In this document: piece after piece, positions 4,273-60,601 of the stretch | How the letters are laid out: each line of letters opens with the position of its first letter | How positions within the stretch are numbered: the stretch's first letter is position 1 | NCBI GenBank assembly: GCA_023267215.1 | Contig: JAHFNS010000001.1 | Span: 98,736 to 162,735, forward strand | DNA: 64,000 bases | Direction: 5' to 3' | Origin: Candidatus Nomurabacteria bacterium | Lineage (GTDB): Bacteria; Patescibacteriota; Minisyncoccia; Phycocordibacterales; UBA9973 | Position numbers and translations under genes: made by a program | The notes under the pieces: generated by a model | What the model was told of the DNA's origin: nothing | Seen by the model: the letters and a program-made list of their open reading frames with translations, nothing else | Databases searched by the model: none

Positions 4273-4301
4273 CTTTTATCATTAAATGATACAATATACA
4301 T

Positions 4302-4853
4302 ATGTTATTCAACTTTTCAAATTTTAAAACAGAGCTTAATAAAATAGCTGAATTTTTAAGCAAAGAATACAGTCAATTAAACATTGGCCGAGCTTCTCCT
4401 ATGGTTTTAGATTCTATTTCTGTAGAATTTTATGGAGCAAGTCAGCCTATAAAAAACGTCGCTTCTATTTCTATAGAAGATCCAAAAACACTAAGAATCA
4501 ATCCTTGGGATAAAAATCAGATTAAAGAAATAGAGAAGGCTATCATGGCTTCAAACTTAGGGTTGTCTGTAGCTGTCGATGGTGCAGGAATAAGAGTGAT
4601 ATTTCCTCAACAAACAACAGAGAGTAGACAAAAATTAGTGAAAGTTTTGAAAGATAAATTAGAAGAAAGTAGAATAGTCGTTCGTAAAGAAAGAGAAAAA
4701 GCTTGGGATGATATTCAAAAAATGGAAAAGGAGGGGAATATGACAGAAGATGAAAAATTCAGAGCAAAGGATGAATTGCAAAAAGTTATAGATGAAATAA
4801 ATCAAAAGTTGGAAGGTGTCTTCGAGAAAAAAGAAAAAGAAGTAATCGGATAA
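4302..4853 (+). CDS. frr: ribosome recycling factor
   Basis: 183 aa. RRF-like pattern: N-terminal EFxKExxxL, GRASP, central NLG/VIFP, C-terminal coiled EKxxKDELQK. Confidence 0.85.
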   Translation: MLFNFSNFKTELNKIAEFLSKEYSQLNIGRASPMVLDSISVEFYGASQPIKNVASISIEDPKTLRINPWDKNQIKEIEKAIMASNLGLSVAVDGAGIRVIFPQQTTESRQKLVKVLKDKLEESRIVVRKEREKAWDDIQKMEKEGNMTEDEKFRAKDELQKVIDEINQKLEGVFEKKEKEVIG

Positions 4854-4855
4854 AT

Positions 4856-5944
4856 ATGAACATATTGATTTTTATAATAATTTTATTAGTTTTGGTGCTT
4901 GTTCATGAATTTGGGCATTTTTTTACTGCTAAAAGATTTGGTATTAGAGTAGATGAATTTGGTTTTGGTTTTCCTCCAAAATTATTTGGTATAAAAAAAG
5001 GGGAGACAGAATATAGTATTAATCTTCTACCAATTGGTGGATTTGTGAAAATTTTTGGCGAAGATCCAAACGAAGAAAATACAGTAGGACCAGATGCTGC
5101 TAGGAGTTTTGTAAATAAACCAAAATATAAACAAGCAATAGTTCTTTTCGCTGGAGTCTTTGCGAATTTTTTACTTGCTTGGCTTTTGTTTTCTATTGGT
5201 TTTATATCAGGACTTCCTACTTCTGTTGGTAGTGAGCCGAAAGATTATAAAATGGAGAATGTGCATCTTGTTGTTCTTTCTGTTTTGCCAAATTCTCCAG
5301 CTCTAGCTGCTGGTCTAAAAACCGGAGATAAAATAGTTTATATAAAAAGTGGAGATGCTGTCACAGATCAAATCAGCCCTGAGACTGTCAAATCTTTTGT
5401 TGCTTTAGGTAAACAATTAGACATGGCATATCTTCGTGGCAATGACCCGACTTATAATATGATCCAGGTTATTCCAAAAGATACTAATGGTACTTATGCA
5501 ATAGGTATTTCTATGGATCAGATAGGGACCGTTAAATTGCCCTTTTTTAATGCCTTTTGGGAGGGTTTAAAATTAGACTGGTCTGTTACAGAAGGTACTG
5601 TTGTGGGGCTTTATACGCTCATTGTAGGGGGTATTATGGGTAAAGGAAGCTTTGCGAACGTTACTGGTCCTGTCGGAATGGTGGGTATCGTAGGTAATGC
5701 GTATCAATTTGGTTTTGTATATTTATTCTCTTTCGCTGCTTTAATTTCAGTGAATTTGGCGATAATAAATCTGATTCCATTTCCAGCCCTAGATGGTGGT
5801 CGTCTCTTCTTTTTACTTATTGAAAAAATAAAAGGTTCTCGTATGAATCCTAAATTTGCAAATACTGCAAACATGGTGGGCTTTGCAATTTTAATTATTC
5901 TCATGCTTCTTGTCACTTATCATGATGTAGTTAAATTATTTTGA
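4856..5944 (+). CDS. rseP: RIP metalloprotease RseP (site-2 protease, M50) with PDZ domain
   Basis: HEFGHFFTAKRFG (HExxH) in TM1, PDZ-like LAAGLKTGDKIV, C-terminal LDGG motif (ALDGGRLFF). Confidence 0.85.
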   Translation: MNILIFIIILLVLVLVHEFGHFFTAKRFGIRVDEFGFGFPPKLFGIKKGETEYSINLLPIGGFVKIFGEDPNEENTVGPDAARSFVNKPKYKQAIVLFAGVFANFLLAWLLFSIGFISGLPTSVGSEPKDYKMENVHLVVLSVLPNSPALAAGLKTGDKIVYIKSGDAVTDQISPETVKSFVALGKQLDMAYLRGNDPTYNMIQVIPKDTNGTYAIGISMDQIGTVKLPFFNAFWEGLKLDWSVTEGTVVGLYTLIVGGIMGKGSFANVTGPVGMVGIVGNAYQFGFVYLFSFAALISVNLAIINLIPFPALDGGRLFFLLIEKIKGSRMNPKFANTANMVGFAILIILMLLVTYHDVVKLF

Positions 5945-6003
5945 CCTCACCTAGAGCCCCTCTCCTTAATAAGGAGAGGGTGGCCAAAGGTCGGGTGAAG
6001 TGT
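5945..6003. repeat. family B palindromic element, copy 1 (intergenic rseP / Cys-rich gene)
   Basis: gacctcacc-tagag-cccctctcctt-aat-aaggagaggg-tgg-ccaaaggt-cgggtgaagtg. Core has perfect 10-bp arms around aat. Confidence 0.7.
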
Positions 6004-6007
6004 ATTT

Positions 6008-7726
6008 ATGAAATCAGAAACTAAAACATGTCAGAATTGCAAACAAGACTTCACTATCGAGCCAGAAGATTTTAATTTTTATGAAAAAATAAAAGTTCCA
6101 CCACCGACATTTTGTCCAGAATGTAGAAGACAAAGACGTTTTGTTTGGCGAAATGAACGGGTGTTATATCGTCGTACTTGTGGTTTATGTAATAAAAATG
6201 TTATTGCAATATATCACGAATCTTCACCTTTTCCTGTGTATTGTCGAGAATGTTGGTATGGAGATAAATGGGATCCTACTTCTTATGGTAGAGAGTATGA
6301 TATGTCTAAATCATTTTTTGAACAATATAAAGAATTATCTAATGTTGTTCCAAGATTGGCTATGTGGCAAAGAAATTGTATAGATTCAGATTACTCAAAT
6401 ATGGCTGGAGAATCAAAAAATGTTTATTTATCTGTTTCGGTTGTAAAAAATTCAGAAAATATTTTTTATTCAAAATCCGTAGATAAATCAAAAGACATTG
6501 TAGATTGTTTAAATATTATAAATGGATCTGAAAGTTTATATGAAAATGTCGAAGCACAGAGTAATTATAATTCACAATATCTTTTATTATGTAGAAGTTG
6601 TATGGATTCTTATTATTTGGTTGATTGCGTAAATTGTAGTAACTGTTTTTTGTCTTATAATTTAAGGAATAAACAATTTTGTATAAACAACAAAGAATAT
6701 AAAAAGGAAGATTATTTTAGAGAGGTAGAAAAGTTCAATTTAAAAAGTAGAGCTTCTCGTCAAGTTTTATTAAAAAGATTTGATGAGATAAAAAAGAAAT
6801 CCATTTATCGTTTTGGAAATATTAATAGGTGTGTGAATGTTACAGGCAACAATCTTTTAAATGTTAAAAATGGTAAAAGTTGTTTTGAAATTTATAACAT
6901 AGAAAATGTAAAATATTGCTATAGAGCTTTTGATATTAAAGATTCTATGGATTTTGACTATGGCGGATGGTCAGAATTACTTTATGAATATACGACAGGT
7001 GCGTTACATGATTACAATGTTAAGTTTAGTTATTCCGCAATGGATTCTGTGAGAAATGCTGATTATACAGAATCTTGTAGAAATTGTTCTAATATTTTTG
7101 GTTGTATTTCTCTCGTAAACACAGAAAATACAATATTAAATAAGGTTTATCCCGAAGAGGAATACAAAAAACTTCGTGAAGAAATTATCAAACAAATGAA
7201 TGAAGTACCATATATTGATAAAGTAGGTAGGGTTTATAAATATGGCGAATTTTTCCCAATAGAGTTATCACCCTGGGATTATAATGAGACTTTGGCCCAA
7301 GAATTTTTTCCTATTACAGAAGATACTGCGAAAGAAAAAGGATATCCATGGCGTCATTCAAACATAAAAAAATTTGAAATTACAATTACTTCAGAAAAAA
7401 TTTCTGATAATATAGATGACGTCAATGAAAATATTTTAAAAGAAGTTTTAGGATGTGCCCATAAGGGGAATTGTAGTCATCAATGTAATGTTGCTTTTCG
7501 TATAACGGACTATGAATTTAAATTCTATAAAAAACATAACATACCGTTACCTATTTTGTGTTCAAATTGTAGACATTATGAGAGATTCAAAGTTATGCCA
7601 GCATTAGATTTGTGGCATAGAAAATGTATGAAAGAGGGTTGTGATAATGAATTTGAGACAGCTTATGCTCCCGACAGGCCGGAGATTGTTTATTGTGAGA
7701 GATGTTATCAACAGGAAGTGTATTAA
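6008..7726 (+). CDS. large Cys-rich (multi zinc-ribbon) protein of unknown function with duplicated N/C-terminal module
   Basis: 572 aa with many CxxC pairs. N-terminal CQNCKQDFTIEPEDFNFYEKIKVPPPTFCPECRRQRRF recurs C-terminally as CNVAFRITDYEFKFYKKHNIPLPILCSNCRHYERF. Sits between rseP and mraY. Confidence 0.7.
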   Translation: MKSETKTCQNCKQDFTIEPEDFNFYEKIKVPPPTFCPECRRQRRFVWRNERVLYRRTCGLCNKNVIAIYHESSPFPVYCRECWYGDKWDPTSYGREYDMSKSFFEQYKELSNVVPRLAMWQRNCIDSDYSNMAGESKNVYLSVSVVKNSENIFYSKSVDKSKDIVDCLNIINGSESLYENVEAQSNYNSQYLLLCRSCMDSYYLVDCVNCSNCFLSYNLRNKQFCINNKEYKKEDYFREVEKFNLKSRASRQVLLKRFDEIKKKSIYRFGNINRCVNVTGNNLLNVKNGKSCFEIYNIENVKYCYRAFDIKDSMDFDYGGWSELLYEYTTGALHDYNVKFSYSAMDSVRNADYTESCRNCSNIFGCISLVNTENTILNKVYPEEEYKKLREEIIKQMNEVPYIDKVGRVYKYGEFFPIELSPWDYNETLAQEFFPITEDTAKEKGYPWRHSNIKKFEITITSEKISDNIDDVNENILKEVLGCAHKGNCSHQCNVAFRITDYEFKFYKKHNIPLPILCSNCRHYERFKVMPALDLWHRKCMKEGCDNEFETAYAPDRPEIVYCERCYQQEVY

Positions 7727-7729
7727 ATT

Positions 7730-7770
7730 CCCCTAAGCTGGGCTTAGGGGACAGAAGCCCAGCTTAGGGG
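7730..7770. repeat. family C GC-rich nested palindrome (intergenic Cys-rich gene / mraY)
   Basis: cccctaagc-tgg-gcttagggg-acag-aagcccagcttagggg. The left 21-mer is itself palindromic, and its reverse complement recurs 3'. Confidence 0.65.
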
Positions 7771-7798
7771 AAGTCTAAAAATATGTTAATATAACTAT

Positions 7799-8854
7799 AT
7801 GCTTTTGAATTTGATTAAAATTTTTTTACCAATGATGACAGCTTTGCTAATAGGGCTTTTCATTACGCCATTTGCCACTCATTTTTTTTATAAATACAAA
7901 ATGTGGAGAAAATATTCTCGTGGTGATACGGTTGGTACTTTAGATTTTAAAAAAATTCATAATAGCGAAGAAGAACTTAAAACACCTAGAGTTGGTGGAA
8001 TAATTATTTGGGTTTCAATCCTTTTTTCTGTTTTGATTTTTTATTTTATTTCAATTTTTTTCCCATCAGATAATACTGAAAAAATTAATTTTTTAAGCAG
8101 AAATCAAACTCTAATTCCTCTTTTAGTTTTAATTTTTGGTTCTTTATTAGGTTTAACGGATGATTTGATTCAAATTTATGGAAAAGGAAAAATTGCTCAT
8201 GATGATAAATCTTGGCGAAAATGGAAAGCGTTTTTAGTATTTCTTATTTCTTTTTTGATTGGACTTTGGTTTTATTATAAATTAGGAATGGTCTCAATTC
8301 ATATTCCTTTTAATGGGGATTTGTATTTGGGGATTTTAATTATTCCATTTTTCATAATTGTTTCTTTGGCCACTTTTTCTGGAGGAATTATTGATGGTTT
8401 AGATGGACTCTCAGGAGGAGTACTTGCCTCGATTTTTTCAGCTTATTCTGTGATAGCATTTATGAATAATCAAATCGATATTGCTGCATTTTCAGCTGTA
8501 GTAACGGGAGCAATTTTGGCATTTCTTTGGTTTAATATTCCACCGGCTAGGTTTTATATGGGCGAAACAGGAATTATAGGTCTCACTATTACTTTGGCCA
8601 CCTTGGCTTTTTTAACTGATACCGTTTTGATTTTACCTATTGTGGCAATGCCTTTAGTTGTGACTTCTTTATCTGTTATTATTCAAATGATTTCTAAAAA
8701 AATGAGGAATGGTAAAAAAGTTTTTAAAATATCCCCACTGCATCATCATTTTGAAGCTTTAGGTTGGTCTCCTTATAAAGTGGTTATGCGTTATTGGATT
8801 TTTTCAATCTCTTTTTCAATTATAGGAATAATTTTAACTGTGATAAGTAGATAA
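7799..8854 (+). CDS. mraY: phospho-N-acetylmuramoyl-pentapeptide transferase MraY
   Basis: Polytopic membrane protein. DDxxD-type (TDDLIQ), ISPLHHHFEALGW (MraY HHH signature). Confidence 0.85.
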   Translation: MLLNLIKIFLPMMTALLIGLFITPFATHFFYKYKMWRKYSRGDTVGTLDFKKIHNSEEELKTPRVGGIIIWVSILFSVLIFYFISIFFPSDNTEKINFLSRNQTLIPLLVLIFGSLLGLTDDLIQIYGKGKIAHDDKSWRKWKAFLVFLISFLIGLWFYYKLGMVSIHIPFNGDLYLGILIIPFFIIVSLATFSGGIIDGLDGLSGGVLASIFSAYSVIAFMNNQIDIAAFSAVVTGAILAFLWFNIPPARFYMGETGIIGLTITLATLAFLTDTVLILPIVAMPLVVTSLSVIIQMISKKMRNGKKVFKISPLHHHFEALGWSPYKVVMRYWIFSISFSIIGIILTVISR

Positions 8855-11752: not shown

Positions 11753-11795
11753 AAAAGTCCGATGTACTATCGGACTTTTCTTATTTTTGGTAAAA
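11753..11795 (+). terminator. rho-independent terminator
   Basis: aaaagtccgat-gtact-atcggacttttc stem-loop followed by a T-run. Confidence 0.6.
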
Positions 11796-20570: not shown

Positions 20571-20589
20571 AATAATATTATATTCTTTT

Positions 20590-33553: not shown

Positions 33554-33627
33554 TGGCTGGGAGGCTTGGAATCGAACCAAAATTGATCGCTTCAAAGGCG
33601 ACTGTCCTACCGTTAGACGACCTCCCA
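33554..33627 (-). tRNA. tRNA-Gln (anticodon UUG), CCA encoded
   Basis: Reverse complement reads TGGGAGG TC GTCT AACGGTA GGAC A GTCGC CTTTGAA GCGAT CAATT TTGGT TCGATTC CAAGC CCTCCCA G CCA. It has U1-A72, G73, GG in the D-loop, a TTCGATT T-loop, and anticodon loop CU-UUG-AA. Confidence 0.8.
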
Positions 33628-36454: not shown

Positions 36455-37462
36455 TCAAATTTTTTTTAAAAAATCACGAATTATTTTTTCTACTTCTTTA
36501 GAATTTTCTGTCTCCATTAATTTTGCACGTAATTCTTTCGCACCAGGAAAATCATTTACATACGCTTTGAAATGTTTTTTCATGACAGCAAAACTTTTAT
36601 GTTTTGGTATCGCAAGCTCTTTATCAAAAAGTTGAGTGTGTTCCATGAGAACTTCTAGTTTTTCTTCTACCCTCTCCTTTTCAAGGAGAGGGGTTGGGGG
36701 TGAGGTGAATACCCAAGGATTTCCAAAAACTCCCCTACCTATCATTATTCCATCACAACCATACTTTTCTGCTTTCTCTTCCGCATCTTTTAAATCTTTA
36801 ACATCACCATTGCCAATGAGCAAAATATCTTTGCCACTTTTTTTAATAAGCTCTTTTATTTTTTTAATGTAATCCCAATTTGCAGGAACGAGAGATAATT
36901 CTTTTGTTGTTCGTAAATGAATCGTCAAAGCAGAAATATCTTCCTTTAATAATTCTGGTATCCAATTATCAATATCTTCCCTATTGAAACCAACTCTCGT
37001 TTTGACAGACACTGGGATATGAAGCCCTGCAGATTTTATTCCAGCATGAGCAGCCTGTATTATTTTTCTAGCAAGTTGTGGTGTCTTTATCAAACCCGAG
37101 CCAGCACCTTGAGCAACGACAGATTTGTCTGGACAACCCATATTTATATCTATTCCATCAAAACCGAGACTAGCAATATAACTACAAGCTTTTTCCATAT
37201 TCTCCGGGTTAGCACCGAAAACTTGAGCGATGATAGGTCTCTCAGCTTCAGAATATTTTAAAATGTGAGAAAGTTTCTTTTTGGCGAGTTTATTACACAA
37301 GCCATCAGCCGCCACAAACTCTGTCCAGAAAACGACGCTGTTTCTATTTTCTCTGTTCTTACTATATTTCGCCAAGATACGACGAAAAGCAATGTCAGTG
37401 ACATCCGACATCGGTGCAAGGCAGAAAAATGGTTTTTTAAGTTTTCTCCAGAAATTTTGCAT
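36455..37462 (-). CDS. tRNA-dihydrouridine synthase (DusB-like)
   Basis: FCLAPMSDVTDIAFRRI, MIGRGVFGNPWVF, TIM-barrel FMN motifs. Carries an in-frame palindromic element (TSPPTPLLEKERV) right after GNPWVF. Confidence 0.85.
   Translation of the reverse strand: MQNFWRKLKKPFFCLAPMSDVTDIAFRRILAKYSKNRENRNSVVFWTEFVAADGLCNKLAKKKLSHILKYSEAERPIIAQVFGANPENMEKACSYIASLGFDGIDINMGCPDKSVVAQGAGSGLIKTPQLARKIIQAAHAGIKSAGLHIPVSVKTRVGFNREDIDNWIPELLKEDISALTIHLRTTKELSLVPANWDYIKKIKELIKKSGKDILLIGNGDVKDLKDAEEKAEKYGCDGIMIGRGVFGNPWVFTSPPTPLLEKERVEEKLEVLMEHTQLFDKELAIPKHKSFAVMKKHFKAYVNDFPGAKELRAKLMETENSKEVEKIIRDFLKKI
36655..36725. repeat. family B palindromic element, copy 3 (inside dus, in-frame)
   Basis: ttcacctcaccccc-aa-cccctctcctt-ttc-aaggagaggg-tagaggaaaaa. 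Read in-frame as FTSPPTPLLEKERVEE on the minus strand. Confidence 0.7.
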
Positions 37463-40938: not shown

Positions 40939-40992
40939 ACAAAGTGCCGAAAGGCTTCGAGAAACCCCGCTTCTGCGGGGTTTCGATTTTCT
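40939..40992 (+). ncRNA. candidate ~55-nt small RNA (GNRA-tetraloop hairpin + terminator hairpin)
   Basis: gccGAAAggc hairpin then aaaccccgc-ttct-gcggggttt followed by tcgattttc. Lies between the promoter above and the convergent mazF-like stop codon. Putative only. Confidence 0.3.
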
Positions 40993-41507: not shown

Positions 41508-43781
41508 ATGAAATTACTCATTGTTGAATCACCATCAAAAGCAAAGACTATAGAAAAATATTTAGAAGGCGCATACACAGTGCGTGCTTCTATTGGACAT
41601 ATTCGTGATTTACCTAAATCAAACAAACAAGCGATAGATATCGAAGGTGGTTTCATTCCACATTATGAAATTTCAAAAGGTAAAGAAAAAGTTGTTCATG
41701 AACTTCAATCACTCGGAGAAAAAGCCACAGAGATATTGTTAGCGACAGACCCCGACCGTGAAGGAGAAGCTATAGCTTGGCATATAGAAGAACTTTTAAA
41801 GAAAGATAAAAAAATAAAAGCTAAAGCGAAACGTGTGACATTCCATGAAATAACAAAGGAAGCCGTAGAAGAAGCATTGAAACATCCTCGAAACATAGAC
41901 ACTGCTTTGAGAAAAGCTCAAGAAGCAAGACGTGTCCTCGACAGACTCGTAGGATATGATCTGTCTGGTTTGATATGGAAAAAAGTACGCTATGGACTCT
42001 CTGCAGGACGTGTTCAATCCCCTGCACTCCGCATAATAATGGAACGCGAAAGAGAAATCCGTGCTTTTGTGCCAGAGAAATATTGGAGAATATTAGGACT
42101 TTTTGAAACACCCAAAAAAGGAAAACTTACTTTAAATTGTTCTATTGAGCCAAGAGATGAAAAAGTTGTAGAAAAAATAATGGAAGAAGGCAATAGTAAA
42201 GATTGGTTTGTAACTGATGTCAAAGAGGGAGAGCAAAAGAGAGTTCCTCGTGCTCCGTTCACTACTTCCACATTACAACAGACAGCGAGCTCTCGCCTTG
42301 GATATTCCCCTTCTAGGACAATGCAAATAGCTCAAAAACTTTATGAAGCTGGACATATCACATACATGCGTACAGATAGTACAAATTTATCTCTTGTCGC
42401 TCAATCACAGATAGTTTCTATGATTGAAAAAAAATATGGGAAAAATTTTGCACAAGCAAGAATTTATAAAACAAAATCAAAAAATGCCCAAGAAGCACAC
42501 GAAGCTATTCGCCCAACTCATATAGAAAATATGTTGGCTGGCACAGATGAACAACAAAGACTTTATAGATTAATCTGGGAGCGTGCTGTTTCTTCACAAA
42601 TGGCAGATGCGAAATTATTGAAGACAAAAATAAGTGCGAATATAGCTTACAGCCCCAAAGACGGTCTTCGGGGAGCTCCCCGAAGACCGTCTTTGGGGCA
42701 ATTCGAATTCCCAGACTTCACAGCTGTCGGTTCCAGAATTCTTTTCTCTGGTTGGCTAGAAGTTGATAGAGATAGTGTCGGAGAAGATTTTGAATTACCA
42801 GAAGTAAAGAAGGGAGACAAATTAAAATTGTTAAATCTCGTTAATGAAGAAAAATTTACCGAACCACCAAATAGATATAGTGAAGCAGGCCTCATTAAAG
42901 AACTCGAGGCACGAGACATAGGTAGACCTTCTACTTATGCTTCCATAATGAAAACATTGGAAGACAGAGAATATGTCAGGAAAGAAGGCAAAACTCTATT
43001 CCCTACAGACGTCGGTGAAGTCGTGTCAGACTTCTTAGAAAATAATTTTGCAAATTATATCTCTGATACATTCACAGCTGAGATGGAAGACGAGCTAGAT
43101 GAAATATCTCGTGGTGAACGTGAATACGAAAAAACATTAAAAGATTTCTATGGACCATTCTTAAAAGAAATAAAAATAAAAGAAAAGTTAGAAAAAGCGA
43201 CAAATTTAGGAGAAGCACCAGAAGGTATAGTGTGTCCAAAATGTGGCAGTAAAATGATAGTGAAGCTTTCTCGTGCAGGAAAATTCTATTCTTGTATTAA
43301 ATATCCAGATTGTGACGGAGCCCTTATGATAGACGGTACAGAATTGAAAGGTCCAAAAGAAACTGGTGAGATGTGTCCCCAATGTGGACATAAGAGTGGA
43401 GGAAAAAAAGGAAATGGGGGTGGAGGAAAATTGATCATACGCGAGAGACGTGATGGCACTGGCACATTCATTTCTTGTTCTCGTTATCCAAAATGTAAGT
43501 TCATAAAAAAAGACGAAGCAGAAGAAGCAAAAAAAAGAACTGGGGTTATCTGTCCAACTTGCAAAAAAGGAGATATTTCTGAGCGCAAAGGAAGATTTGG
43601 AGTATTTTATTCCTGTTCAAACTATCCTGATTGTAAATTTGCAATTAAAGCAAAACCCACTGGTAAAACATGTGATAAATGTGGATCTTTAATGATGCAA
43701 GGTACAAAAACTATCCCTGATAGATGCAGTAATAATACATGTTTAAATTATCGACCTGATAAATTAAATAAAATTAAATAA
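41508..43781 (+). CDS. topA: DNA topoisomerase I with C-terminal zinc-ribbon repeats
   Basis: MKLLIVESPSKAKTIEKYLEG...GHIRDLP (TOPRIM), active-site region HITYMRTDS, four CxxC...CxxC zinc ribbons at the C-terminus. Carries an in-frame 46-bp palindrome at 42653..42698. Confidence 0.9.
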   Translation: MKLLIVESPSKAKTIEKYLEGAYTVRASIGHIRDLPKSNKQAIDIEGGFIPHYEISKGKEKVVHELQSLGEKATEILLATDPDREGEAIAWHIEELLKKDKKIKAKAKRVTFHEITKEAVEEALKHPRNIDTALRKAQEARRVLDRLVGYDLSGLIWKKVRYGLSAGRVQSPALRIIMEREREIRAFVPEKYWRILGLFETPKKGKLTLNCSIEPRDEKVVEKIMEEGNSKDWFVTDVKEGEQKRVPRAPFTTSTLQQTASSRLGYSPSRTMQIAQKLYEAGHITYMRTDSTNLSLVAQSQIVSMIEKKYGKNFAQARIYKTKSKNAQEAHEAIRPTHIENMLAGTDEQQRLYRLIWERAVSSQMADAKLLKTKISANIAYSPKDGLRGAPRRPSLGQFEFPDFTAVGSRILFSGWLEVDRDSVGEDFELPEVKKGDKLKLLNLVNEEKFTEPPNRYSEAGLIKELEARDIGRPSTYASIMKTLEDREYVRKEGKTLFPTDVGEVVSDFLENNFANYISDTFTAEMEDELDEISRGEREYEKTLKDFYGPFLKEIKIKEKLEKATNLGEAPEGIVCPKCGSKMIVKLSRAGKFYSCIKYPDCDGALMIDGTELKGPKETGEMCPQCGHKSGGKKGNGGGGKLIIRERRDGTGTFISCSRYPKCKFIKKDEAEEAKKRTGVICPTCKKGDISERKGRFGVFYSCSNYPDCKFAIKAKPTGKTCDKCGSLMMQGTKTIPDRCSNNTCLNYRPDKLNKIK
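42653..42698. repeat. family A GC-rich palindromic element, copy 2 (in topA, in-frame)
   Basis: ccccaaagacggtcttcgggg-agct-ccccgaagaccgtctttgggg. Perfect 21-bp arms, near-identical to copy 1. Confidence 0.8.
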
Positions 43782-47856: not shown

Positions 47857-48794
47857 ATACACCTCACCCTAACCCTCTCCTTAATAAGGAGAGAGGAAAA
47901 ATCTTACCAAAGGTTATTGTGATATTAGGCTCAACAGCTACTGGAAAGAGTGACCTAGCTGTTAAAATTGCCAAAAAAATCAATGGAGAAGTTATTTCAG
48001 CTGATTCTAGACAAGTCTACAAAAGTCTTGATATAGGCACAGGTAAAATAAGTAAAAAAGAAATGAAGGGTATCCCTCATCATTTGCTCGATGTCGTAAA
48101 TCCAAAGAAAAAATTTACAGTCGCAGAATATCAAAAGAAAGCAATCCACGCCATGGCTCTGATTGTAAAAAAAGGCAAAACTCCCATAATTTGCGGAGGC
48201 ACGGGATTTTATATTGATGCTATTACCAAAAGCACCGTTTTTCCTGAAGTTCCACCGAATTTAAAATTAAGAAAAACTTTAGAAAAAAAATCAGCTCTAG
48301 AGCTTTTTAAAATGTTAATGAAATTAGATAAAAGACGTGCGAAAGATATAAAAGATAAAAATGAAATAAATAATAAAGTCAGATTAATAAGAGCAATAGA
48401 GATAGTTAAAGCTATCGGTAAAGTTCCAAAATTACAAAGTGACACAAACTCTGCCATGGCAAAAAATGTGTCACTATATGAGTTTATAAAAATTGGATTA
48501 TATTTATCGCCAGATGAATTAAAAAAGAAAATAGAAAAAAGAGTTAAAAAAATGTTTAAAGATGGATTGTTGAATGAAATAAAAAAATTAAAGAAAGCAG
48601 GAATATCCGAAAAAAGATTAAAAGAGTTTGGTTTTGAATACGATTCCCCTACTTATGAAAAAGTGGTGAAAGAAACCATAAAATACACCAAACGCCAAAT
48701 GACTTGGTTTAAGAGAGATAAAGAAATTAAATGGATTGATGCCTCAACACAAACAAATTTAGAAAAAATAATTAATGATTTACAAAAGGATTAA
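47853..48794 (+). CDS. miaA: tRNA dimethylallyltransferase MiaA
   Basis: P-loop GSTATGKSDLAVKIAK, DSRQVYKSLDIGTGK, HHLLDV. N-terminal 22 residues are encoded by a palindromic element. An in-frame GTG at ~47919 is an alternative start. Confidence 0.85.
   Translation: MNTPHPNPLLNKERGKILPKVIVILGSTATGKSDLAVKIAKKINGEVISADSRQVYKSLDIGTGKISKKEMKGIPHHLLDVVNPKKKFTVAEYQKKAIHAMALIVKKGKTPIICGGTGFYIDAITKSTVFPEVPPNLKLRKTLEKKSALELFKMLMKLDKRRAKDIKDKNEINNKVRLIRAIEIVKAIGKVPKLQSDTNSAMAKNVSLYEFIKIGLYLSPDELKKKIEKRVKKMFKDGLLNEIKKLKKAGISEKRLKEFGFEYDSPTYEKVVKETIKYTKRQMTWFKRDKEIKWIDASTQTNLEKIINDLQKD
47858..47915. repeat. family B palindromic element, copy 2 (5' end of miaA)
   Basis: acacctcaccctaa-ccctctcctt-aat-aaggagagagg-aaaaatctta-ccaaaggtt. 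Shares cctcacc, the core palindrome and ccaaaggt with copy 1. Confidence 0.7.
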
Positions 48795-51901: not shown

Positions 51902-51940
51902 ATTTTGAGTATAACATTTATATTTATAAATAAAAATAAT

Positions 51941-56531: not shown

Positions 56532-56801
56532 TTAAAATTTATATCCTTCAGATTTTAAAATTCTTTTCTTTTTATCCGGCCCCCGATTGTATCCACCAAG
56601 CCCTCCATCAGAACGAATGACTCTATGGCAGGGAATTTTAGGGTTGTGATTTCTATTTAAAATATTCCCAACTGCCCGACTCGCTTTTATATTCCCTGCT
56701 CTCCTCGCCACTTCCTTATACGTCAAAACTTTTCCTTTTGGAATTTTCTTAACAACTTCATATACTTTTTCTGAAAAAGATTTCATATCTAGAATATTCA
56801 T
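56532..56801 (-). CDS. MGMT-family protein (methylated-DNA-protein-cysteine methyltransferase DNA-binding domain only)
   Basis: VPKGKVLTYKEVARRAGNIKASRAVGNILNRNHNPKIPCHRVIRSDGGLGGY, i.e. PCHRV active-site motif in an 89-aa stand-alone C-terminal domain. Confidence 0.75.
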   Translation of the reverse strand: MNILDMKSFSEKVYEVVKKIPKGKVLTYKEVARRAGNIKASRAVGNILNRNHNPKIPCHRVIRSDGGLGGYNRGPDKKKRILKSEGYKF

Positions 56802-56825
56802 CCCAACAAACTCCAGTTTGTAAGG
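56801..56825. promoter_or_regulatory. palindromic operator-like motif (copy 1 of 3), cccaACAAACTccAGTTTGTaagga
   Basis: Abuts the MGMT start codon. The same 14-16 nt palindrome recurs at ~58881..58904 and ~59214..59238. Confidence 0.45.
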
Positions 56826-56838
56826 ATATTAATAATAC

Positions 56839-57084
56839 TTAATCTTCAATTATTAAAAGTTTACTTTCGCTTTGATGCCCGTTTATGATGCGTATTTTGG
56901 AAAATGGAAGTTTAAAATGCAAAGAAAGAAGCTCTATCACTCGCTTATTGGCTAAATTACGCTCAGCTTTTTCTTTGACAGAAACTAAAAAATGATCTTC
57001 CGATTTTTGTTTCAGAGATTCCTTTTTCGCCTTAGTTGCAACTTTCACATGAATGTATTTCATTTTATTAAAACCAAATCTCAA
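56839..57084 (-). CDS. DUF167 (YggU-like) protein, copy a
   Basis: YIHVKVATKAKKESLKQKSEDHFLVSVKEKAERNLANKRVIELLSLHFKLPFSKIRIINGHQSESKLLII matches the DUF167 pattern. Probable start MKYIHV. Confidence 0.6.
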   Translation of the reverse strand: MRFGFNKMKYIHVKVATKAKKESLKQKSEDHFLVSVKEKAERNLANKRVIELLSLHFKLPFSKIRIINGHQSESKLLIIED

Positions 57085-57463
57085 TAGTAATTAAAATATC
57101 TATGCCATCATAAAGATTTTCCTGAAAGCGGATTTGTTTTTTGAGAGGCAAAATGTATGTCGGAGAATACCAATCCGGGAAAATAGAAGTCGTCCACTCC
57201 GTCTTCTTTATCTTCGCCTTGGCATAGACAGCTCCGAACCCTCTCCTCAGCTTCCCCTTCTGCATTTCCCTAATCTTCGCCGAAATATCCTCCGGCACCC
57301 GCGCAAATCTCCAAGCCGAATCTTTTTCGCTCTTGTCATACCCGTATACCCAAACAATAACCTTACTCTTAAACCTAAAAGTCCCTCTTATCTTCCCTTT
57401 TCTAATTTTTTTAGTTTTAGATTTTAGATTCTTTGGCATTAATTTTCCATACTCCTTTTTCAC
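57068..57463 (-). CDS. DUF1905 family protein, copy a
   Basis: FRFKSKVIVW...AWRFARVPEDISAKIREMQKGKLRRGFGAVYAKAKIKKTEWTTSIFPDWYSPTYILPLKKQIR matches the DUF1905 beta-barrel pattern. Lys-rich N-terminal extension. Confidence 0.6.
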   Translation of the reverse strand: MKKEYGKLMPKNLKSKTKKIRKGKIRGTFRFKSKVIVWVYGYDKSEKDSAWRFARVPEDISAKIREMQKGKLRRGFGAVYAKAKIKKTEWTTSIFPDWYSPTYILPLKKQIRFQENLYDGIDILITIEIWF

Positions 57464-58304
57464 GAAAAGCTGGGATTGTTTGACGTCTAGCCATATTAAT
57501 CAAACTGGCTAAAGATTGTAAATTTTTCTTTGCATATTCTGCCAGAGTTATTATTTCGGCACCCTTTAAATATGCAATTCTTTTATTTAGACTTTCAGAA
57601 AGAGCTAAATATAAAACTTGTTCCATTTCTTTTGTTGATTTTTTAACTTTAAAATTTGAAAAAGTTTTGTAATATATATGCTTTTCTTTATCACGAATAA
57701 TAATATTCGGATAACCAAATTCTTGAAGCTGTAAATTAATAAGGACACGACCGATACGCCCATTACCGTCACAAAATGGATGAATATGTTCAAATTCTAA
57801 ATGAAAATAAGCTATTTTTTTAAAAATATTTATATCATGATCTGTTTTATAATCATTCAATAATACTTCTACCATTCTCATGACATGTTCTGGTGCAGGT
57901 GCAATATGGTTACTGACTCTAACAAATTCACCTGCTTTTCTAAATCTACCAGCAATAGAATCATCTATTCCACCGATAAGTAAGCTATGAATAAAAAGAA
58001 CCGTTTCTTGGTTTAAGACGATGCTATTTTTTTTTGCTTTTATATATTCATAAACTCGAGCTAAATTTTTTGCTTCAAAAACCTCACGGAGTGAATAATT
58101 TTTGGAAACTTCCAAATCTAAAAGAATCTTCTCTGTGTCTGGAAGAGTGAGTGTTGAATTTTCAATTGCATTTGAGTTGTATACGGATTCAGCAAGCTCT
58201 ACTTCGTCTAAAACTGTCAAAAGAGACTCTTTCCCCTTTTTTAGAGAATCAAGAGACTTTTTTAAATTTATTATATTTTGAAACTTCTTATTTACTTTAT
58301 TCAT
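57417..58304 (-). CDS. Fic/DOC-family protein (class II-like, internal inhibitory motif)
   Basis: Fic motif HPFCDGNGRIGRVLINLQL. N-terminal SNAIEN fits the (S/T)xxxE(G/N) inhibitory-helix motif. Confidence 0.8.
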   Translation of the reverse strand: MNKVNKKFQNIINLKKSLDSLKKGKESLLTVLDEVELAESVYNSNAIENSTLTLPDTEKILLDLEVSKNYSLREVFEAKNLARVYEYIKAKKNSIVLNQETVLFIHSLLIGGIDDSIAGRFRKAGEFVRVSNHIAPAPEHVMRMVEVLLNDYKTDHDINIFKKIAYFHLEFEHIHPFCDGNGRIGRVLINLQLQEFGYPNIIIRDKEKHIYYKTFSNFKVKKSTKEMEQVLYLALSESLNKRIAYLKGAEIITLAEYAKKNLQSLASLINMARRQTIPAFREKGVWKINAKESKI

Positions 58305-58420
58305 AAATATATACTTATAGTATAGTCTATTTACTGTTTATTGTCAAGTAAAACGTAAATATGAGGTAAAAACAGCCTATATTTACGTTTTTTAATTTTA
58401 ACCTTTAAATTCTTTGGCAT

Positions 58421-58864
58421 TTATTTATCAAACTGACTAACCCAAAATATTTTTTTATCTTTTAACCATTTTAGTATCTGTTTCTTTAATGCAATTGGGT
58501 AAATTTTTTCTTTCATAAATTGCTCTTTGGAAAATAGAGCAAATTCAATATGGCCTTCTTGGCTTTTTGTTTTAATCTTTTTTACTTCTGTTTTAAATAC
58601 TAAATTTATTTCGTGACGTCTTTGCCCTTCTTCTATATAAATATTATCAGCAACACCAATAAAGGTTATTTTCTTTACTTCTATATTTAATTCTTCCTTA
58701 AATTCACGTTTAATCGCTTTTTCTATTTTTTCATTAAATTCTAAATGCCCACCTGGTAAAAAATAGTTACCATGTTTCTTACTCCTACAAATTAATATTT
58801 TATTATTATCAAAAACAACAGCTCGAATAATAACCTCAACTATATTTTTATATTTATATTTCAT
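58421..58864 (-). CDS. NUDIX hydrolase
   Basis: Nudix box GGHLEFNEKIEKAIKREFKEELNI. Confidence 0.7.
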   Translation of the reverse strand: MKYKYKNIVEVIIRAVVFDNNKILICRSKKHGNYFLPGGHLEFNEKIEKAIKREFKEELNIEVKKITFIGVADNIYIEEGQRRHEINLVFKTEVKKIKTKSQEGHIEFALFSKEQFMKEKIYPIALKKQILKWLKDKKIFWVSQFDK

Positions 58865-58880
58865 ATTTTTATATTCATCC

Positions 58881-58904
58881 TTACAAACTCCAGTTTGTAA
58901 GGAT
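58881..58904. promoter_or_regulatory. palindromic operator-like motif (copy 2), ccttACAAACTccAGTTTGTaagg
   Basis: Perfect 11-bp inverted arms. Lies between the NUDIX start and the ArsR-like stop. Confidence 0.45.
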
Positions 58905-58905
58905 G

Positions 58906-59193
58906 TTAATTAAACTGTTGAAATGATTTTAAAAAGTTAACAAACATTTTACCATATGGAGATAAAGTGTGTTCGACAAACTTACCTTTATATCTTTTAT
59001 TAACTAATCCTGCTTGATGAAGTCTTCGAGTGTGTTCACCTATTGTTTTTGGATTTGCCTTAAGCGTATCAATAATATCATCGAGAGTTATCCCATTTTC
59101 TTTTTGTACAAGGAGCAATATCTCAATGCGATAGTGATTTGCTATCCCTTTTAGATGTCGCTCCATTTGTTTTGCTGTTTTTATTTTTGCCAT
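58906..59193 (-). CDS. ArsR/SmtB-family HTH transcriptional regulator
   Basis: Start taken at MAKIKTAKQMERHLKGIANHYRIEILLLV. wHTH ...TIGEHTRRLHQAGLVNKR. Track ORF extends upstream over the palindrome. Confidence 0.6.
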   Translation of the reverse strand: MAKIKTAKQMERHLKGIANHYRIEILLLVQKENGITLDDIIDTLKANPKTIGEHTRRLHQAGLVNKRYKGKFVEHTLSPYGKMFVNFLKSFQQFN

Positions 59194-59213
59194 ATTTATA
59201 TTATATACTACAT

Positions 59214-59238
59214 CCTTACAAACTCCAGTTTGTTGGGG
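59214..59238. promoter_or_regulatory. palindromic operator-like motif (copy 3), ccttACAAACTccAGTTTGTtgggg
   Basis: ~20 nt upstream of the proposed ArsR-like start, suggesting autoregulation. Confidence 0.45.
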
Positions 59239-59251
59239 TGTTAATTTGATA

Positions 59252-59623
59252 TTAGAACCAGATTTGGATTGAGATTGAGATTTGGATATCATCATAAAGA
59301 TTTTCCTTGTAACGGATTTGTTTTTTGAGAGGCAAAATGTATGTCGGAGAATACCAGTCTGGAAAAATTGAAGTCGTCCACTCCGTCTTCTTTATCTTCG
59401 CTTTGGCATAAATAGCTCCCCATCCCCGTCGTGGCTTCCCTTTCTGCATCTTTTTAATCTTAGCCGAAATGTCCTCCGGTACCCGAGCGAATCTCCAAGC
59501 ACTATCAATATTCTCCCTATTAGTACCGTAGCTCCAAACAATAACTTTACTTTTGAATTTGAAAATCCATTTTATTTTGCTTTGACTAATTTTTTTAGTT
59601 TTAATATTTAAATTCTTTTGCAT
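59252..59623 (-). CDS. DUF1905 family protein, copy b (paralog of 57068..57463)
   Basis: AWRFARVPEDISAKIKKMQKGKPRRGWGAIYAKAKIKKTEWTTSIFPDWYSPTYILPLKKQIRYKENLYD is almost identical to copy a. Underlying DNA is also near-identical over more than 130 nt. Confidence 0.6.
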   Translation of the reverse strand: MQKNLNIKTKKISQSKIKWIFKFKSKVIVWSYGTNRENIDSAWRFARVPEDISAKIKKMQKGKPRRGWGAIYAKAKIKKTEWTTSIFPDWYSPTYILPLKKQIRYKENLYDDIQISISIQIWF

Positions 59624-59671
59624 TTTTTAAAAAAATTCATTCATCTTGTATATATTTTTTTAATATATCAT

Positions 59672-59950
59672 TTAATCTTCAATTACCAAAAGCTTACTTG
59701 GGCTTCTGTGGCCATTTATGATTCTTGTTTTTGACACAGGTATTTTGAAATGAAGAGAGATGAGTTCCAACACTCTTTTATTAGCTAAATTACGCTCGGC
59801 TTTTTCTTTGACCGAAACTTCAAAATGATCCTCAGATTTTTGCTTAAAGGATTCTTTTTTCATTCCAGCCATAACTTTTACGTGAATGTATTTCATTTTA
59901 TTATTTACTTTTTCAATGCAATTGGGTAAATTTTTTCTTTCATAAATCAA
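59672..59950 (-). CDS. DUF167 (YggU-like) protein, copy b
   Basis: MKYIHVKVMAGMKKESFKQKSEDHFEVSVKEKAERNLANKRVLELISLHFKIPVSKTRIINGHRSPSKLLVIED, paralog of 56839..57084. Confidence 0.6.
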   Translation of the reverse strand: MIYERKNLPNCIEKVNNKMKYIHVKVMAGMKKESFKQKSEDHFEVSVKEKAERNLANKRVLELISLHFKIPVSKTRIINGHRSPSKLLVIED

Positions 59951-60037: not shown

Positions 60038-60601
60038 TTATTTAATACAAGCTGCTTTGGCTGTTGTGAAAGCTGTATTAGCTGCTGTTTTAGCATCTTT
60101 CATAGCTACGACAGCTGCATCCTTTGCAGACTTACGAGCTGCCACGGCTGCTGTTTTAGCATCTTTCATAGCTACGACAGCTGCATCCTTTGCAGACTTA
60201 CGAGCTGCTATAGCTGTTGTCATAGCTGTCTTTTTAGCTGTTGCATTAGTCAAGGCTTTTGCTGCTGCTACAGCTATCGTATAAGTGCTATTAGCATCTT
60301 TAATAGCTCCTGTATAAGTAGTATTTGAAGATTTAACTGCTGTAACATAGGTAGTATTAGCATCTTTTACTGCTGCAGTGTAAGTTTTATTAGCATCTTT
60401 TACCGCTACCTTTTTTGCAGTAGTCGCATCTGCAACACATTTTTTTTGATCAACTGTTAATTTAGTTTTAGAAGTCGGTGCACTTGTTGTCGTTGGAGTA
60501 GTTACGTCAGTAGATGTAGTATTTTCTTGTGCATATGCAAGAGAAGATACAAACAATACACCAACCAACAATGATCCAACAAATAATTTTGATTTATTCA
60601 T
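60038..60601 (-). CDS. secreted Ala/Lys/Thr-rich repeat protein
   Basis: Signal peptide MNKSKLFVGSLLVGVLFVSSLAYAQ. Protein repeats KDANxTYTxAV and a perfect 22-aa tandem AARKSAKDAAVVAMKDAKTAAV x2. Confidence 0.6.
   Translation of the reverse strand: MNKSKLFVGSLLVGVLFVSSLAYAQENTTSTDVTTPTTTSAPTSKTKLTVDQKKCVADATTAKKVAVKDANKTYTAAVKDANTTYVTAVKSSNTTYTGAIKDANSTYTIAVAAAKALTNATAKKTAMTTAIAARKSAKDAAVVAMKDAKTAAVAARKSAKDAAVVAMKDAKTAANTAFTTAKAACIK
60081..60212. repeat. 66-bp perfect tandem duplication inside the repeat-protein gene
   Basis: gctgctgttttagcatctttcatagctacgacagctgcatcctttgcagacttacgagctgc occurs twice back to back (period 66 nt). Confidence 0.6.

Follow-up and report, generated by a model that had tools for sequence, protein, structure and literature searches.

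Two GC-rich palindromes flanking a cysteine-rich gene between rseP and mraY in a Nomurabacteria genome are probably copies of small dispersed repeats

A gene for a 572-residue cysteine-rich protein (CysR) lies between rseP and mraY in 64,000 nucleotides of DNA from a Candidatus Nomurabacteria bacterium (contig JAHFNS010000001.1; the whole stretch is hereafter called the window), and a GC-rich palindrome of a different family adjoins the gene on each side. What are these palindromes, and do they have anything to do with the gene that they bracket? An earlier note on this DNA had suggested that they could act as terminators or attenuators, or could mark CysR as inserted cargo. We consider it likely, though well short of certain, that both belong to a group of short GC-rich palindromic repeats dispersed through AT-rich Paceibacteria genomes and similar to the repetitive extragenic palindromic (REP) sequences and Rickettsia palindromic elements (RPEs) of other bacteria, and that CysR is a resident gene rather than cargo. 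The elements are probably selfish repeats, in a lineage for which our literature search gave no report of them. Their positions, the existence of several families and the variation between close relatives all enter into this view: the repeats lie nearly always 0-12 nt from an upstream stop codon or in frame within permissive loops or termini of housekeeping proteins, and they may be present in one genome and absent from a close relative. The host is an AT-rich member of the Paceibacteria/Nomurabacteria within the Candidate Phyla Radiation (CPR), an ultra-small groundwater bacterium, and the window has a GC content of about 31%. Genes on its plus strand run in the order mreB, holB, frr, rseP, CysR, mraY, ftsW, murG, and the central features are as follows.

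4856-5944, plus strand: rseP, a site-2 protease gene (Peptidase_M50, Pfam PF02163, E = 8e-61) that closes the mreB-holB-frr-rseP block
5945-6003, no strand: family B nested palindrome, recognized by its fold and by copies in the window and in other Paceibacteria loci
6008-7726, plus strand: CysR, ortholog group c0, with a TAA stop at 7724-7726 and a function unassigned by family searches
7728-7772, no strand: family C palindrome, TT-CCCCTAAGCTGGGCTT-AGGGGACAG-AAGCCCAGCTTAGGGG-AA (7730-7770 without the flanking TT/AA), beginning one base past the CysR stop
7784-7792, plus strand: predicted extended -10 promoter TGTTAATAT, 6 nt ahead of the mraY ATG, which predicts a leaderless mraY-ftsW-murG transcript
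7799-8854, plus strand: mraY (Pfam PF00953), which opens the mraY-ftsW-murG block; synteny with L087, L004, L006 and L064

Here and below, L-numbers denote loci from related genomes and metagenomic contigs used for comparison, and P-numbers denote compared proteins.

Sequence inspection and folding bore out the earlier description of two palindromes of different families, one on each side of the gene. Family B begins at the very next base after the rseP stop codon (TGA, 5942-5944) and lies in the 63-nt spacer between rseP and CysR. Its inner hairpin at 5958-5980 (23 nt) has a perfect stem of 10 bp, CCCTCTCCTT-AAT-AAGGAGAGGG, and its outer stem pairs CCTCACC (5945-5951) with GGGTGAAG (about 5991-5998), giving a pyrimidine-rich 5' half and a purine-rich 3' half. 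The minimum free energy of the RNA is -29.7 kcal/mol (z = -3.7), and none of 200 shuffled sequences folded equally well. A Logan assembly made independently from the same strain (L094) contains an identical copy of the element, which is therefore not an assembly artefact. Family C, in the 72-nt spacer between CysR and mraY, has a perfect stem of 16 bp, or 18 bp with the flanking TT/AA, and folds at -35.6 kcal/mol (z = -5.5 on the plus strand and -7.7 on the minus strand). The inner hairpin that had been noted within it, CCCCTAAGC-TGG-GCTTAGGGG, exists as an alternative fold; written as TTCCCCTAAGC-TGG-GCTTAGGGG, it is the 25-nt core repeat unit seen elsewhere, whereas full-length C is a nested form of 41-45 nt. 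A count of perfect stems of 10 bp or more and 60% GC or more over the whole window gave six, as against none in 20 first-order Markov simulations of it.

Both families recur beyond this locus. Three copies of family B are found in the window (5945-6003, 36665-36709 on the minus strand, and 47860-47900), and about 17 related B-type nested elements occur at Paceibacteria loci in at least 12 other genomes. They share the architecture ACCTCACCC, N4-6, CCCTCTCCTT-loop-AAGGAGAGGG, N6-12, GGGGTGAGGT, and come in at least four sequence variants (CCCTCTCC, CCCCTCCTT, CCCCCTCC and CCTCCCCC), each of which preserves perfect complementarity. In four cases a B-type element begins immediately at a stop codon. 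No B element follows rseP in L081, L083-85 or L087. For family C, a single scan of metagenomic contigs with the 19-nt core returned eight loci, of which seven were AT-rich groundwater contigs from Hainich and one was a chance match in GC-rich sequence. Half of the eight (L086-L089) carry the 41-nt element after the stop codon of a CysR-family gene: compared with that of the window, the L089 copy is identical, the L087 copy is longer by one G, the L086 copy differs by two substitutions and the L088 copy is truncated. The CysR genes that precede these copies are four different paralogs, 35-48% identical to that of the window and mutually unlike. Identity in C is bounded by TTCCCC...GGGGAA, while the adjoining codons and spacers have diverged (the spacer is about 70% identical). 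L087 keeps the gene order of the window for 12 kb, between holB and the L27 gene, and its flanking proteins are 65-91% identical; there, the slot between rseP and C holds a different CysR paralog (46% identical), C is kept and family B is absent.

Copies of such elements also lie within coding sequences (CDSs), including those of a third family, A, which is present twice in the window.

114-163, no strand: family A palindrome in rsmI, with a 21-bp perfect stem, in frame, encoding SQKTVFGEEPRRPSSG
42644-42705, no strand: family A palindrome in topA, with a 22-bp perfect stem, in frame, encoding SPKDGLRGAPRRPSLGQ
36665-36709, minus strand: family B copy (5' outer arm and inner hairpin) within the dus CDS, on the dus coding strand, encoding TSPPTPLLEKERVE
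47860-47900, plus strand: family B copy at the murA/miaA junction, read as an N-terminal extension of MiaA, MNTPHPNPLLNKERGK, if the ATG overlapping the murA stop is used

Comparison with relatives revealed empty sites for several of these copies. RsmI of L083 and L085, which is 78% identical, is missing exactly the 14 codons of the family A insert, such that the filled site has 50 nt in place of the 8 nt of the empty one. Likewise, MiaA of L083 does not have the 15-residue N-terminal extension, and the murA/miaA junctions of L083 and L025 contain no B element. The copy in dus was set aside as a length-adding insertion after comparison with the Thermotoga maritima enzyme (1vhn), relative to which no added length could be shown; the segment replaces a linker of similar size. 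Each family carries its own peptide into the proteins that it enters. The A frame reads PRRPS(S/L)G, and the B frame gives PxPxPLLxKERG in Dus and MiaA of the window and in alanyl-tRNA synthetase (AlaRS) of L021. Among the comparison loci, palindromic inserts were found in AlaRS, UvrA and UvrC-like genes.

The insert in TopA belongs to a wider pattern. Escherichia coli TopA has a 17-residue gap opposite the family A insert, and we compared the window's enzyme (topA, 41508-43781) with 120 Paceibacteria orthologs (P0241-P0360) over the loop at about residues 377-400. Roughly half of these orthologs have a short loop (...IEGHEDLPEFGA...), and the others carry inserts of 10-29 residues with sequences typical of translated palindromes from many different families. 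The family A insert is present in relatives whose TopA is 92% and 86% identical, and another relative at 86% is empty. One peptide, KEGAGGGNSKKNHLALKGTPPxKGGE, is inserted in both TopA (P0307, P0330) and UvrA (L029). These alignments show one surface loop of TopA to be a hot spot where palindromic inserts enter in frame.

A candidate for the activity that mobilizes family C was found in another genome. In L093/L091 the 25-nt C core hairpin occurs at three places around a 237-aa open reading frame (ORF; L093 8113-8826): one copy abuts the stop, one lies 135 nt upstream of the start, and one is in frame, where it encodes SPKLGLGE directly after the HUH motif. The ORF has the motifs HFH (HUH) and YIHLNP and matches NCBIfam NF047646, the REP-associated tyrosine transposase (RAYT) family, at E = 1e-8, with a weak match to Pfam Y1_Tnp in addition. 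The arrangement of this RAYT-like gene and its hairpins resembles a REPtron (a RAYT gene with its REPs on either side). Within the same region (L093 6900-8980; also L091 420-1300), positions 6909-6960 of L093 duplicate part of the 3' end of the RAYT-like gene together with a hairpin. A second RAYT-like gene, 32% identical to that of L093, is present in a Giovannonibacteria contig (L028 157-680), flanked by palindromes of the CAACTTGGTAGCT/AGCTACCAAGTTG type that carry a GTAG-like motif (GGTAGC).

Several observations weigh against the view that these are simply dispersed selfish repeats. The RAYT match in L093 scores 35 bits, under the curated NCBIfam cut-off of 80, and the 64-kb window holds no homolog of the RAYT-like gene. 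Families A, B and C do not have the GTAG/CGTC tag of classical REPs, family C is single-copy in the window, and the comparison of filled and empty sites at rsmI shows no target-site duplication. The conservation of C, with one extra G, at the orthologous mraY-proximal site in L087 could indicate selection for function. The hairpins also favor one gene family. At loci of no more than 45% GC, perfect GC-rich hairpins were counted in 12 of 201 CysR-adjacent intergenic regions and in 8 of 438 others (p = 0.012; odds ratio 3.4; p = 0.04 when the window is left out). Orthologous CysR genes (type c81) differ in the element behind them, which is B-type in L001 but C-type in L086, and this too could point to selection for a function. 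Both of the new, independent settings of full-length C are again 3' ends of CysR genes. About 15 CysR-adjacent hairpins start 0-12 nt past the stop codon, except for one (L002) at about 23 nt; these distances were read from coordinates and sequences rather than tabulated. The bias toward CysR is real, and simple selfish spread does not account for it. Candidate causes are a target preference, selection for a hairpin at the 3' end, and tolerance of insertions at rearrangement-prone junctions.

The nature of CysR itself bears on whether it could be cargo. The protein belongs to no Pfam, NCBIfam, PADLOC or PHROG family (its PADLOC and PHROG matches are insignificant), and its more than 5,465 homologs, which all come from Patescibacteria (Paceibacteria, Nomurabacteria and relatives), are all labelled 'hypothetical'; the top 120 are 57-100% identical to it over the full length. 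Invariant cysteine pairs define about five predicted zinc sites. In the AlphaFold2 model (predicted local distance difference test score, 85.5), N- and C-terminal zinc-ribbon modules surround a beta-helix-like core; the N-terminus has double zinc ribbon motifs, and the C-terminal 55 residues are similar to a LIM double zinc finger, although this profile match among PDB sequences is marginal (E = 0.002). Foldseek returned only weak, insignificant matches to left-handed beta-helices in the PDB (E above 0.08). Taken together, the family searches, the weak Foldseek hits and the marginal LIM match led us to discard the idea that CysR is a mobilizing enzyme or a defense gene.

The family is also abundant. 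Tandem arrays of two to eight CysR paralogs, mostly without palindromes, are found across 80 genomic loci, and 180 full-length members cluster into 96 groups, with the window's gene in the 22-member group c0. Arrays of five to eight paralogs are seen in L045, L048, L046, L026 and L023. Many arrays lie inside cell-wall and division clusters, for example as four CysR genes between ftsW and murG in L023 (the same interval is occupied in L036) and elsewhere beside mraY, penicillin-binding protein (PBP) genes, ddl or an mreB-like gene. With respect to the earlier placement of CysR in the dcw cluster, the gene does recur near mraY, ftsW, murG, PBP genes and ddl in many Paceibacteria, but its position and the paralog vary, and it belongs to no known family. 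The CysR family is among the largest uncharacterized paralog expansions in these small genomes. The paralog in L087 (2486-4228) is a mosaic whose C-terminal third is 84% identical to L086_342-2045 and whose other two thirds (N-terminal and middle) reach no more than 57% identity with any family member sampled, a pattern that suggests recombination among CysR paralogs.

CysR does not stand out from the genome in base composition and is a member of a family conserved throughout the lineage; therefore, it appears to be a resident gene and not foreign cargo. Its orthologs, 57-90% identical across genera, are accompanied by other palindromes or by none, and in L087 element C stays at the mraY-proximal site beside the different paralog. 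These observations do not support the proposal that CysR was inserted as cargo.

Nor does CysR interrupt a canonical rseP/mraY arrangement, as had been supposed. The frr-rseP and mraY-ftsW-murG groups are separate conserved blocks, and their junction is a recurrent synteny breakpoint; in relatives, ddl follows rseP and scpA-scpB-dac precedes mraY. The closest ortholog of CysR (90%, L001) lies after dnaJ and has no palindromes. In L082, whose RseP is 85% identical, rseP is followed by an element of the family TGGAGGAGGTC..., the c0 gene, a second element of the same family in direct orientation, w19755 and a PBP gene. Neither CysR nor a palindrome is present after rseP in L081 (RseP 91%) and L083-85 (79%), where the next gene is ddl-like or ddl itself, and other CysR paralogs take that place in L031, L025 and L076. 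The order scpA-scpB-(dac)-CysR-mraY is found in L004, L006 and L064. In the window, c0 stands between rseP and mraY, and scpA-scpB-dac-ddl-alr lies on the opposite strand at a distance of 45 kb. This order is the expected result of an inversion whose breakpoints are the two junctions beside CysR. A second breakpoint coincides with the C site in comparison with L082, L009 and L089, where CysR-w19755-PBP is found in place of CysR-mraY. However, no palindrome is found in the window at 51902-51940 or 20571-20589, the reciprocal junctions of the inferred inversions, which leaves the repeats as no more than candidate causes of these rearrangements.

We also considered whether the palindromes terminate transcription. 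The sequences that follow the hairpins are GTGTATTTATG for B, AAGTCTAAAAAT for C and AATTTAATAC for C on the minus strand. No U-tract follows B or C on either strand, and a consensus terminator scan of the window flagged neither. Plain intrinsic terminators were rejected on these grounds and because copies lie within coding sequences. Canonical bidirectional terminators, which are hairpins in A/T runs and unlike families A, B and C, are found at 11753-11779 and 40961-40984. The reasoning that palindromes absent elsewhere would be plain terminators does not apply here, as they are present in other genomes and in frame in housekeeping genes. A known RNA family was likewise discarded, since Rfam reported only three tRNAs at the gathering threshold in the window and chance-level matches (E >= 0.27) around the elements.

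The part of the terminator proposal that survives concerns C, for which a role at a transcript end is possible. Downstream of C, the window and the loci L087, L088 and L089 all have the motif TGTTAnAAT at a distance of exactly 6 nt upstream of the ATG. This conserved extended -10 element with its fixed spacing makes it very probable that mraY starts a leaderless transcript at about position 7799, and C would then lie at the 3' end of a frr-rseP-CysR unit. The sequence TGnTAnnnT ends 4-9 nt before the start in 9 of the 73 genes of the window, compared with 0.84% of random positions, and only 5 of the 73 have a Shine-Dalgarno-like 4-mer, which suggests that leaderless transcription is widespread in the host and that Shine-Dalgarno sequences are little used. 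Examples of the extended -10 element are found at mraY (7784-7801), frr (about 4280-4304) and ddl (about 51902-51925, minus strand). Family B, with a 5' half that resembles an anti-Shine-Dalgarno sequence and a 3' half that resembles a Shine-Dalgarno sequence, could in principle mask a ribosome-binding site or couple translation, but this idea is weakened by the low usage of such sites and the common leaderless extended -10 promoters.

How well do other explanations fare? One is that the hairpins are dedicated cis-regulatory RNAs, either U-tract-independent terminators or attenuators or stabilizers of 3' ends, that evolved, or were recruited and are now kept, to shield the CysR transcript from its neighbors, the rseP and mraY units. 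This is possible, although it is not the simplest reading and we consider it unlikely. It would explain why C is placed exactly between the CysR stop and the mraY promoter in a layout that recurs in three other loci, why its 41 nt are conserved beside a spacer that is not, why orthologous CysR genes have different hairpin families at the same position, and why hairpins are enriched 3.4-fold beside CysR genes. However, there is no U-tract on either strand and the terminator scan was negative in a window that has canonical terminators elsewhere. The same families are found inside rsmI, topA, dus, miaA, AlaRS and UvrA genes, where a terminator would do damage; the corresponding junctions of close relatives are free of hairpins (L001, L081 and the 5' side in L087); and the C core flanks a transposase-like gene.

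Alternatively, the palindromes might be recombination substrates that shuffle CysR cassettes and their neighbors through homologous or site-specific exchange at paralog 3' ends, which we regard as rather improbable. Both flanks of CysR are indeed synteny breakpoints (against rseP-ddl and scpA-scpB-dac-CysR-mraY in relatives), the exchange of mraY for w19755-PBP falls at the C site, and L087 is collinear over 12 kb save for a swapped, mosaic paralog beside a retained C. Yet the reciprocal junctions in the window have no palindrome, no recombinase gene is nearby, and breakpoints and repeats may each simply favor permissive junctions; B, moreover, differs from C, and the two could therefore not recombine with each other. 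Least probable of all, and essentially refuted, is that the palindromes delimit a mobile unit with CysR as its cargo, whether as an integron cassette with attC-like sites or as a REPtron with CysR as the mobilizing enzyme. In favor of this, CysR has a palindrome on either side in the window and also, from another family, in L082; its closest ortholog is located elsewhere, after dnaJ; and RAYT genes are classically flanked by REPs (PMC3733652). Against this stand flanks of two families in the window, orthologs with other flanks or none, a C element that remains with a different paralog in L087, the absence of any compositional anomaly, and tandem arrays of up to eight paralogs that are mostly palindrome-free. 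CysR itself, a predicted beta-helix with zinc fingers, has no HUH/Y1, integrase or nuclease signature, and no attC core sites were seen by inspection. Finally, one might combine these ideas and suppose that the stop-codon-proximal CysR 3' ends are specific landing or retention sites for hairpins mobilized by a divergent RAYT, the two together forming a recombination system that swaps CysR cassettes and inverts the neighboring cell-wall blocks in Paceibacteria. A selfish repeat would then have been co-opted to diversify and rewire a lineage-specific protein family within the division and cell-wall clusters; we give this a low probability.

If the palindromes are dispersed REP/RPE-like repeats, as we favor, they would spread, or would once have spread, as single-stranded-DNA hairpin elements mobilized in trans, and would persist only where they are tolerated or mildly useful. 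Transcripts of B and C would form stable hairpins, most likely acting as 3'-end barriers that stabilize the upstream mRNA against 3' exonucleases. REPs of E. coli reportedly protect 3' ends and disturb the release of ribosomes at a nearby stop codon. By analogy, the hairpins may also damp read-through into mraY and interfere with ribosome release at the adjacent stop; every such effect of B and C at the RNA level is inferred. At this locus the palindromes would then mark the place where two gene blocks join, a permissive and recombination-prone site, rather than the termini of mobile cargo.

Genomes of the CPR/Patescibacteria are regarded as extremely streamlined. Our literature search found no report of selfish palindromic repeats (REP or RPE) or RAYT-like transposases in this group, and nothing relevant on leaderless mRNA in Patescibacteria. 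If our reading is correct, streamlined genomes tolerate REP/RPE-like elements even inside essential genes, with a bearing on gene calling and protein alignments for these organisms. The repeats would also serve as natural markers, both of permissive loops in proteins and of variation at the strain level, and may explain part of the frequent local rearrangements near cell-wall genes. In addition, the locus draws attention to a very large, conserved and uncharacterized zinc-finger/beta-helix family linked to peptidoglycan and division genes. The association between the repeats and CysR and the insertion hot spot in TopA are two leads beyond the main finding.

Other repeats and a possible small RNA were observed elsewhere in the window. 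The minus strand has segmental duplications within 56780-59950 (57066-57316 versus 59250-59500, 82% identical; 56832-57028 versus 59665-59861, 77%), together with further repeats of 50-100 nt, and this region covers several short ORFs of unassigned function. A 66-nt tandem repeat at 60054-60374 (copies 95% identical, with degenerate units nearby) lies in the minus-strand ORF 60038-60601. The GC-rich segment 31776-31827 contains GCTGGGAGGCT, an 11-mer that also ends tRNA-Gln (33554-33627); it was called by neither ARAGORN nor Rfam and is a candidate tRNA fragment or small RNA of another kind.

Among known systems, miniature inverted-repeat transposable elements differ in that the whole element is palindromic here and in that the rsmI site has no target-site duplication. 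Integron cassettes offer a parallel, with an ORF followed by an imperfect 3' palindrome, tandem paralogous ORFs, and cassette-like replacement at one slot (the window versus L087). However, the elements do not have the extrahelical-base architecture of attC sites, palindromes differ between neighbors and most array members have none. The attC reading was rejected for lack of core sites: no R''/R' cores (RYYYAAC / GTTRRRY) were seen in B or C by inspection, and there was no integrase among the annotated neighbors and no attI. Intrinsic terminators and SPRITE elements share with B and C a GC-rich stem-loop right after the stop, which for C is just before the next promoter, but the present elements have no U-tract, have copies in essential coding sequences, and vary in presence between close relatives.

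The RPEs of Rickettsia, the classic example of in-frame insertion, are selfish palindromic repeats of about 100-150 bp that occur in frame in unrelated housekeeping genes (Minnick 2024, PMC10969869). The elements described here likewise form in-frame inserts in unrelated genes, specify family-specific peptides, occupy surface loops or termini, and reside in a reduced genome. They are set apart by their length of 40-62 nt, apparently by the lack of any sequence relationship to RPEs, by being GC-rich in an AT-rich genome, and by a TopA loop that hosts many families across orthologs.

A further parallel is that to REPs and REPINs. REPs are palindromes of 20-40 bp found mostly downstream of coding regions and sometimes within genes, notably uvrA and other repair and replication genes (PMC3733652); they carry an unpaired GTAG or CGTC tag at one end, and RAYT genes are flanked by the REPs that they mobilize (Di Nocera et al. 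2013, PMC3733652). The palindromes of this lineage are also short and GC-rich, come in several families per genome with nested or dimer forms, and are presumably transcribed as hairpins. B and C lie 0 and 1 nt past stop codons, respectively, and intragenic copies include one in UvrA. A RAYT-like gene for a putative tyrosine (HUH/Y1) transposase is flanked in L093/L091 by the C core hairpin, its candidate cognate, and a comparable arrangement is seen in L028. In copy number, the 64 kb hold three elements of family B, two of A and one of C, and B and C have copies in other genomes. The differences are that A, B and C have no GTAG/CGTC tag and inhabit a streamlined CPR host of about 31% GC, that the RAYT-like protein is a distant, sub-threshold match whose flanking hairpins in L093 are direct and not inverted, and that, unlike REPs, these elements are strikingly tied to the stop codons of one paralog family.

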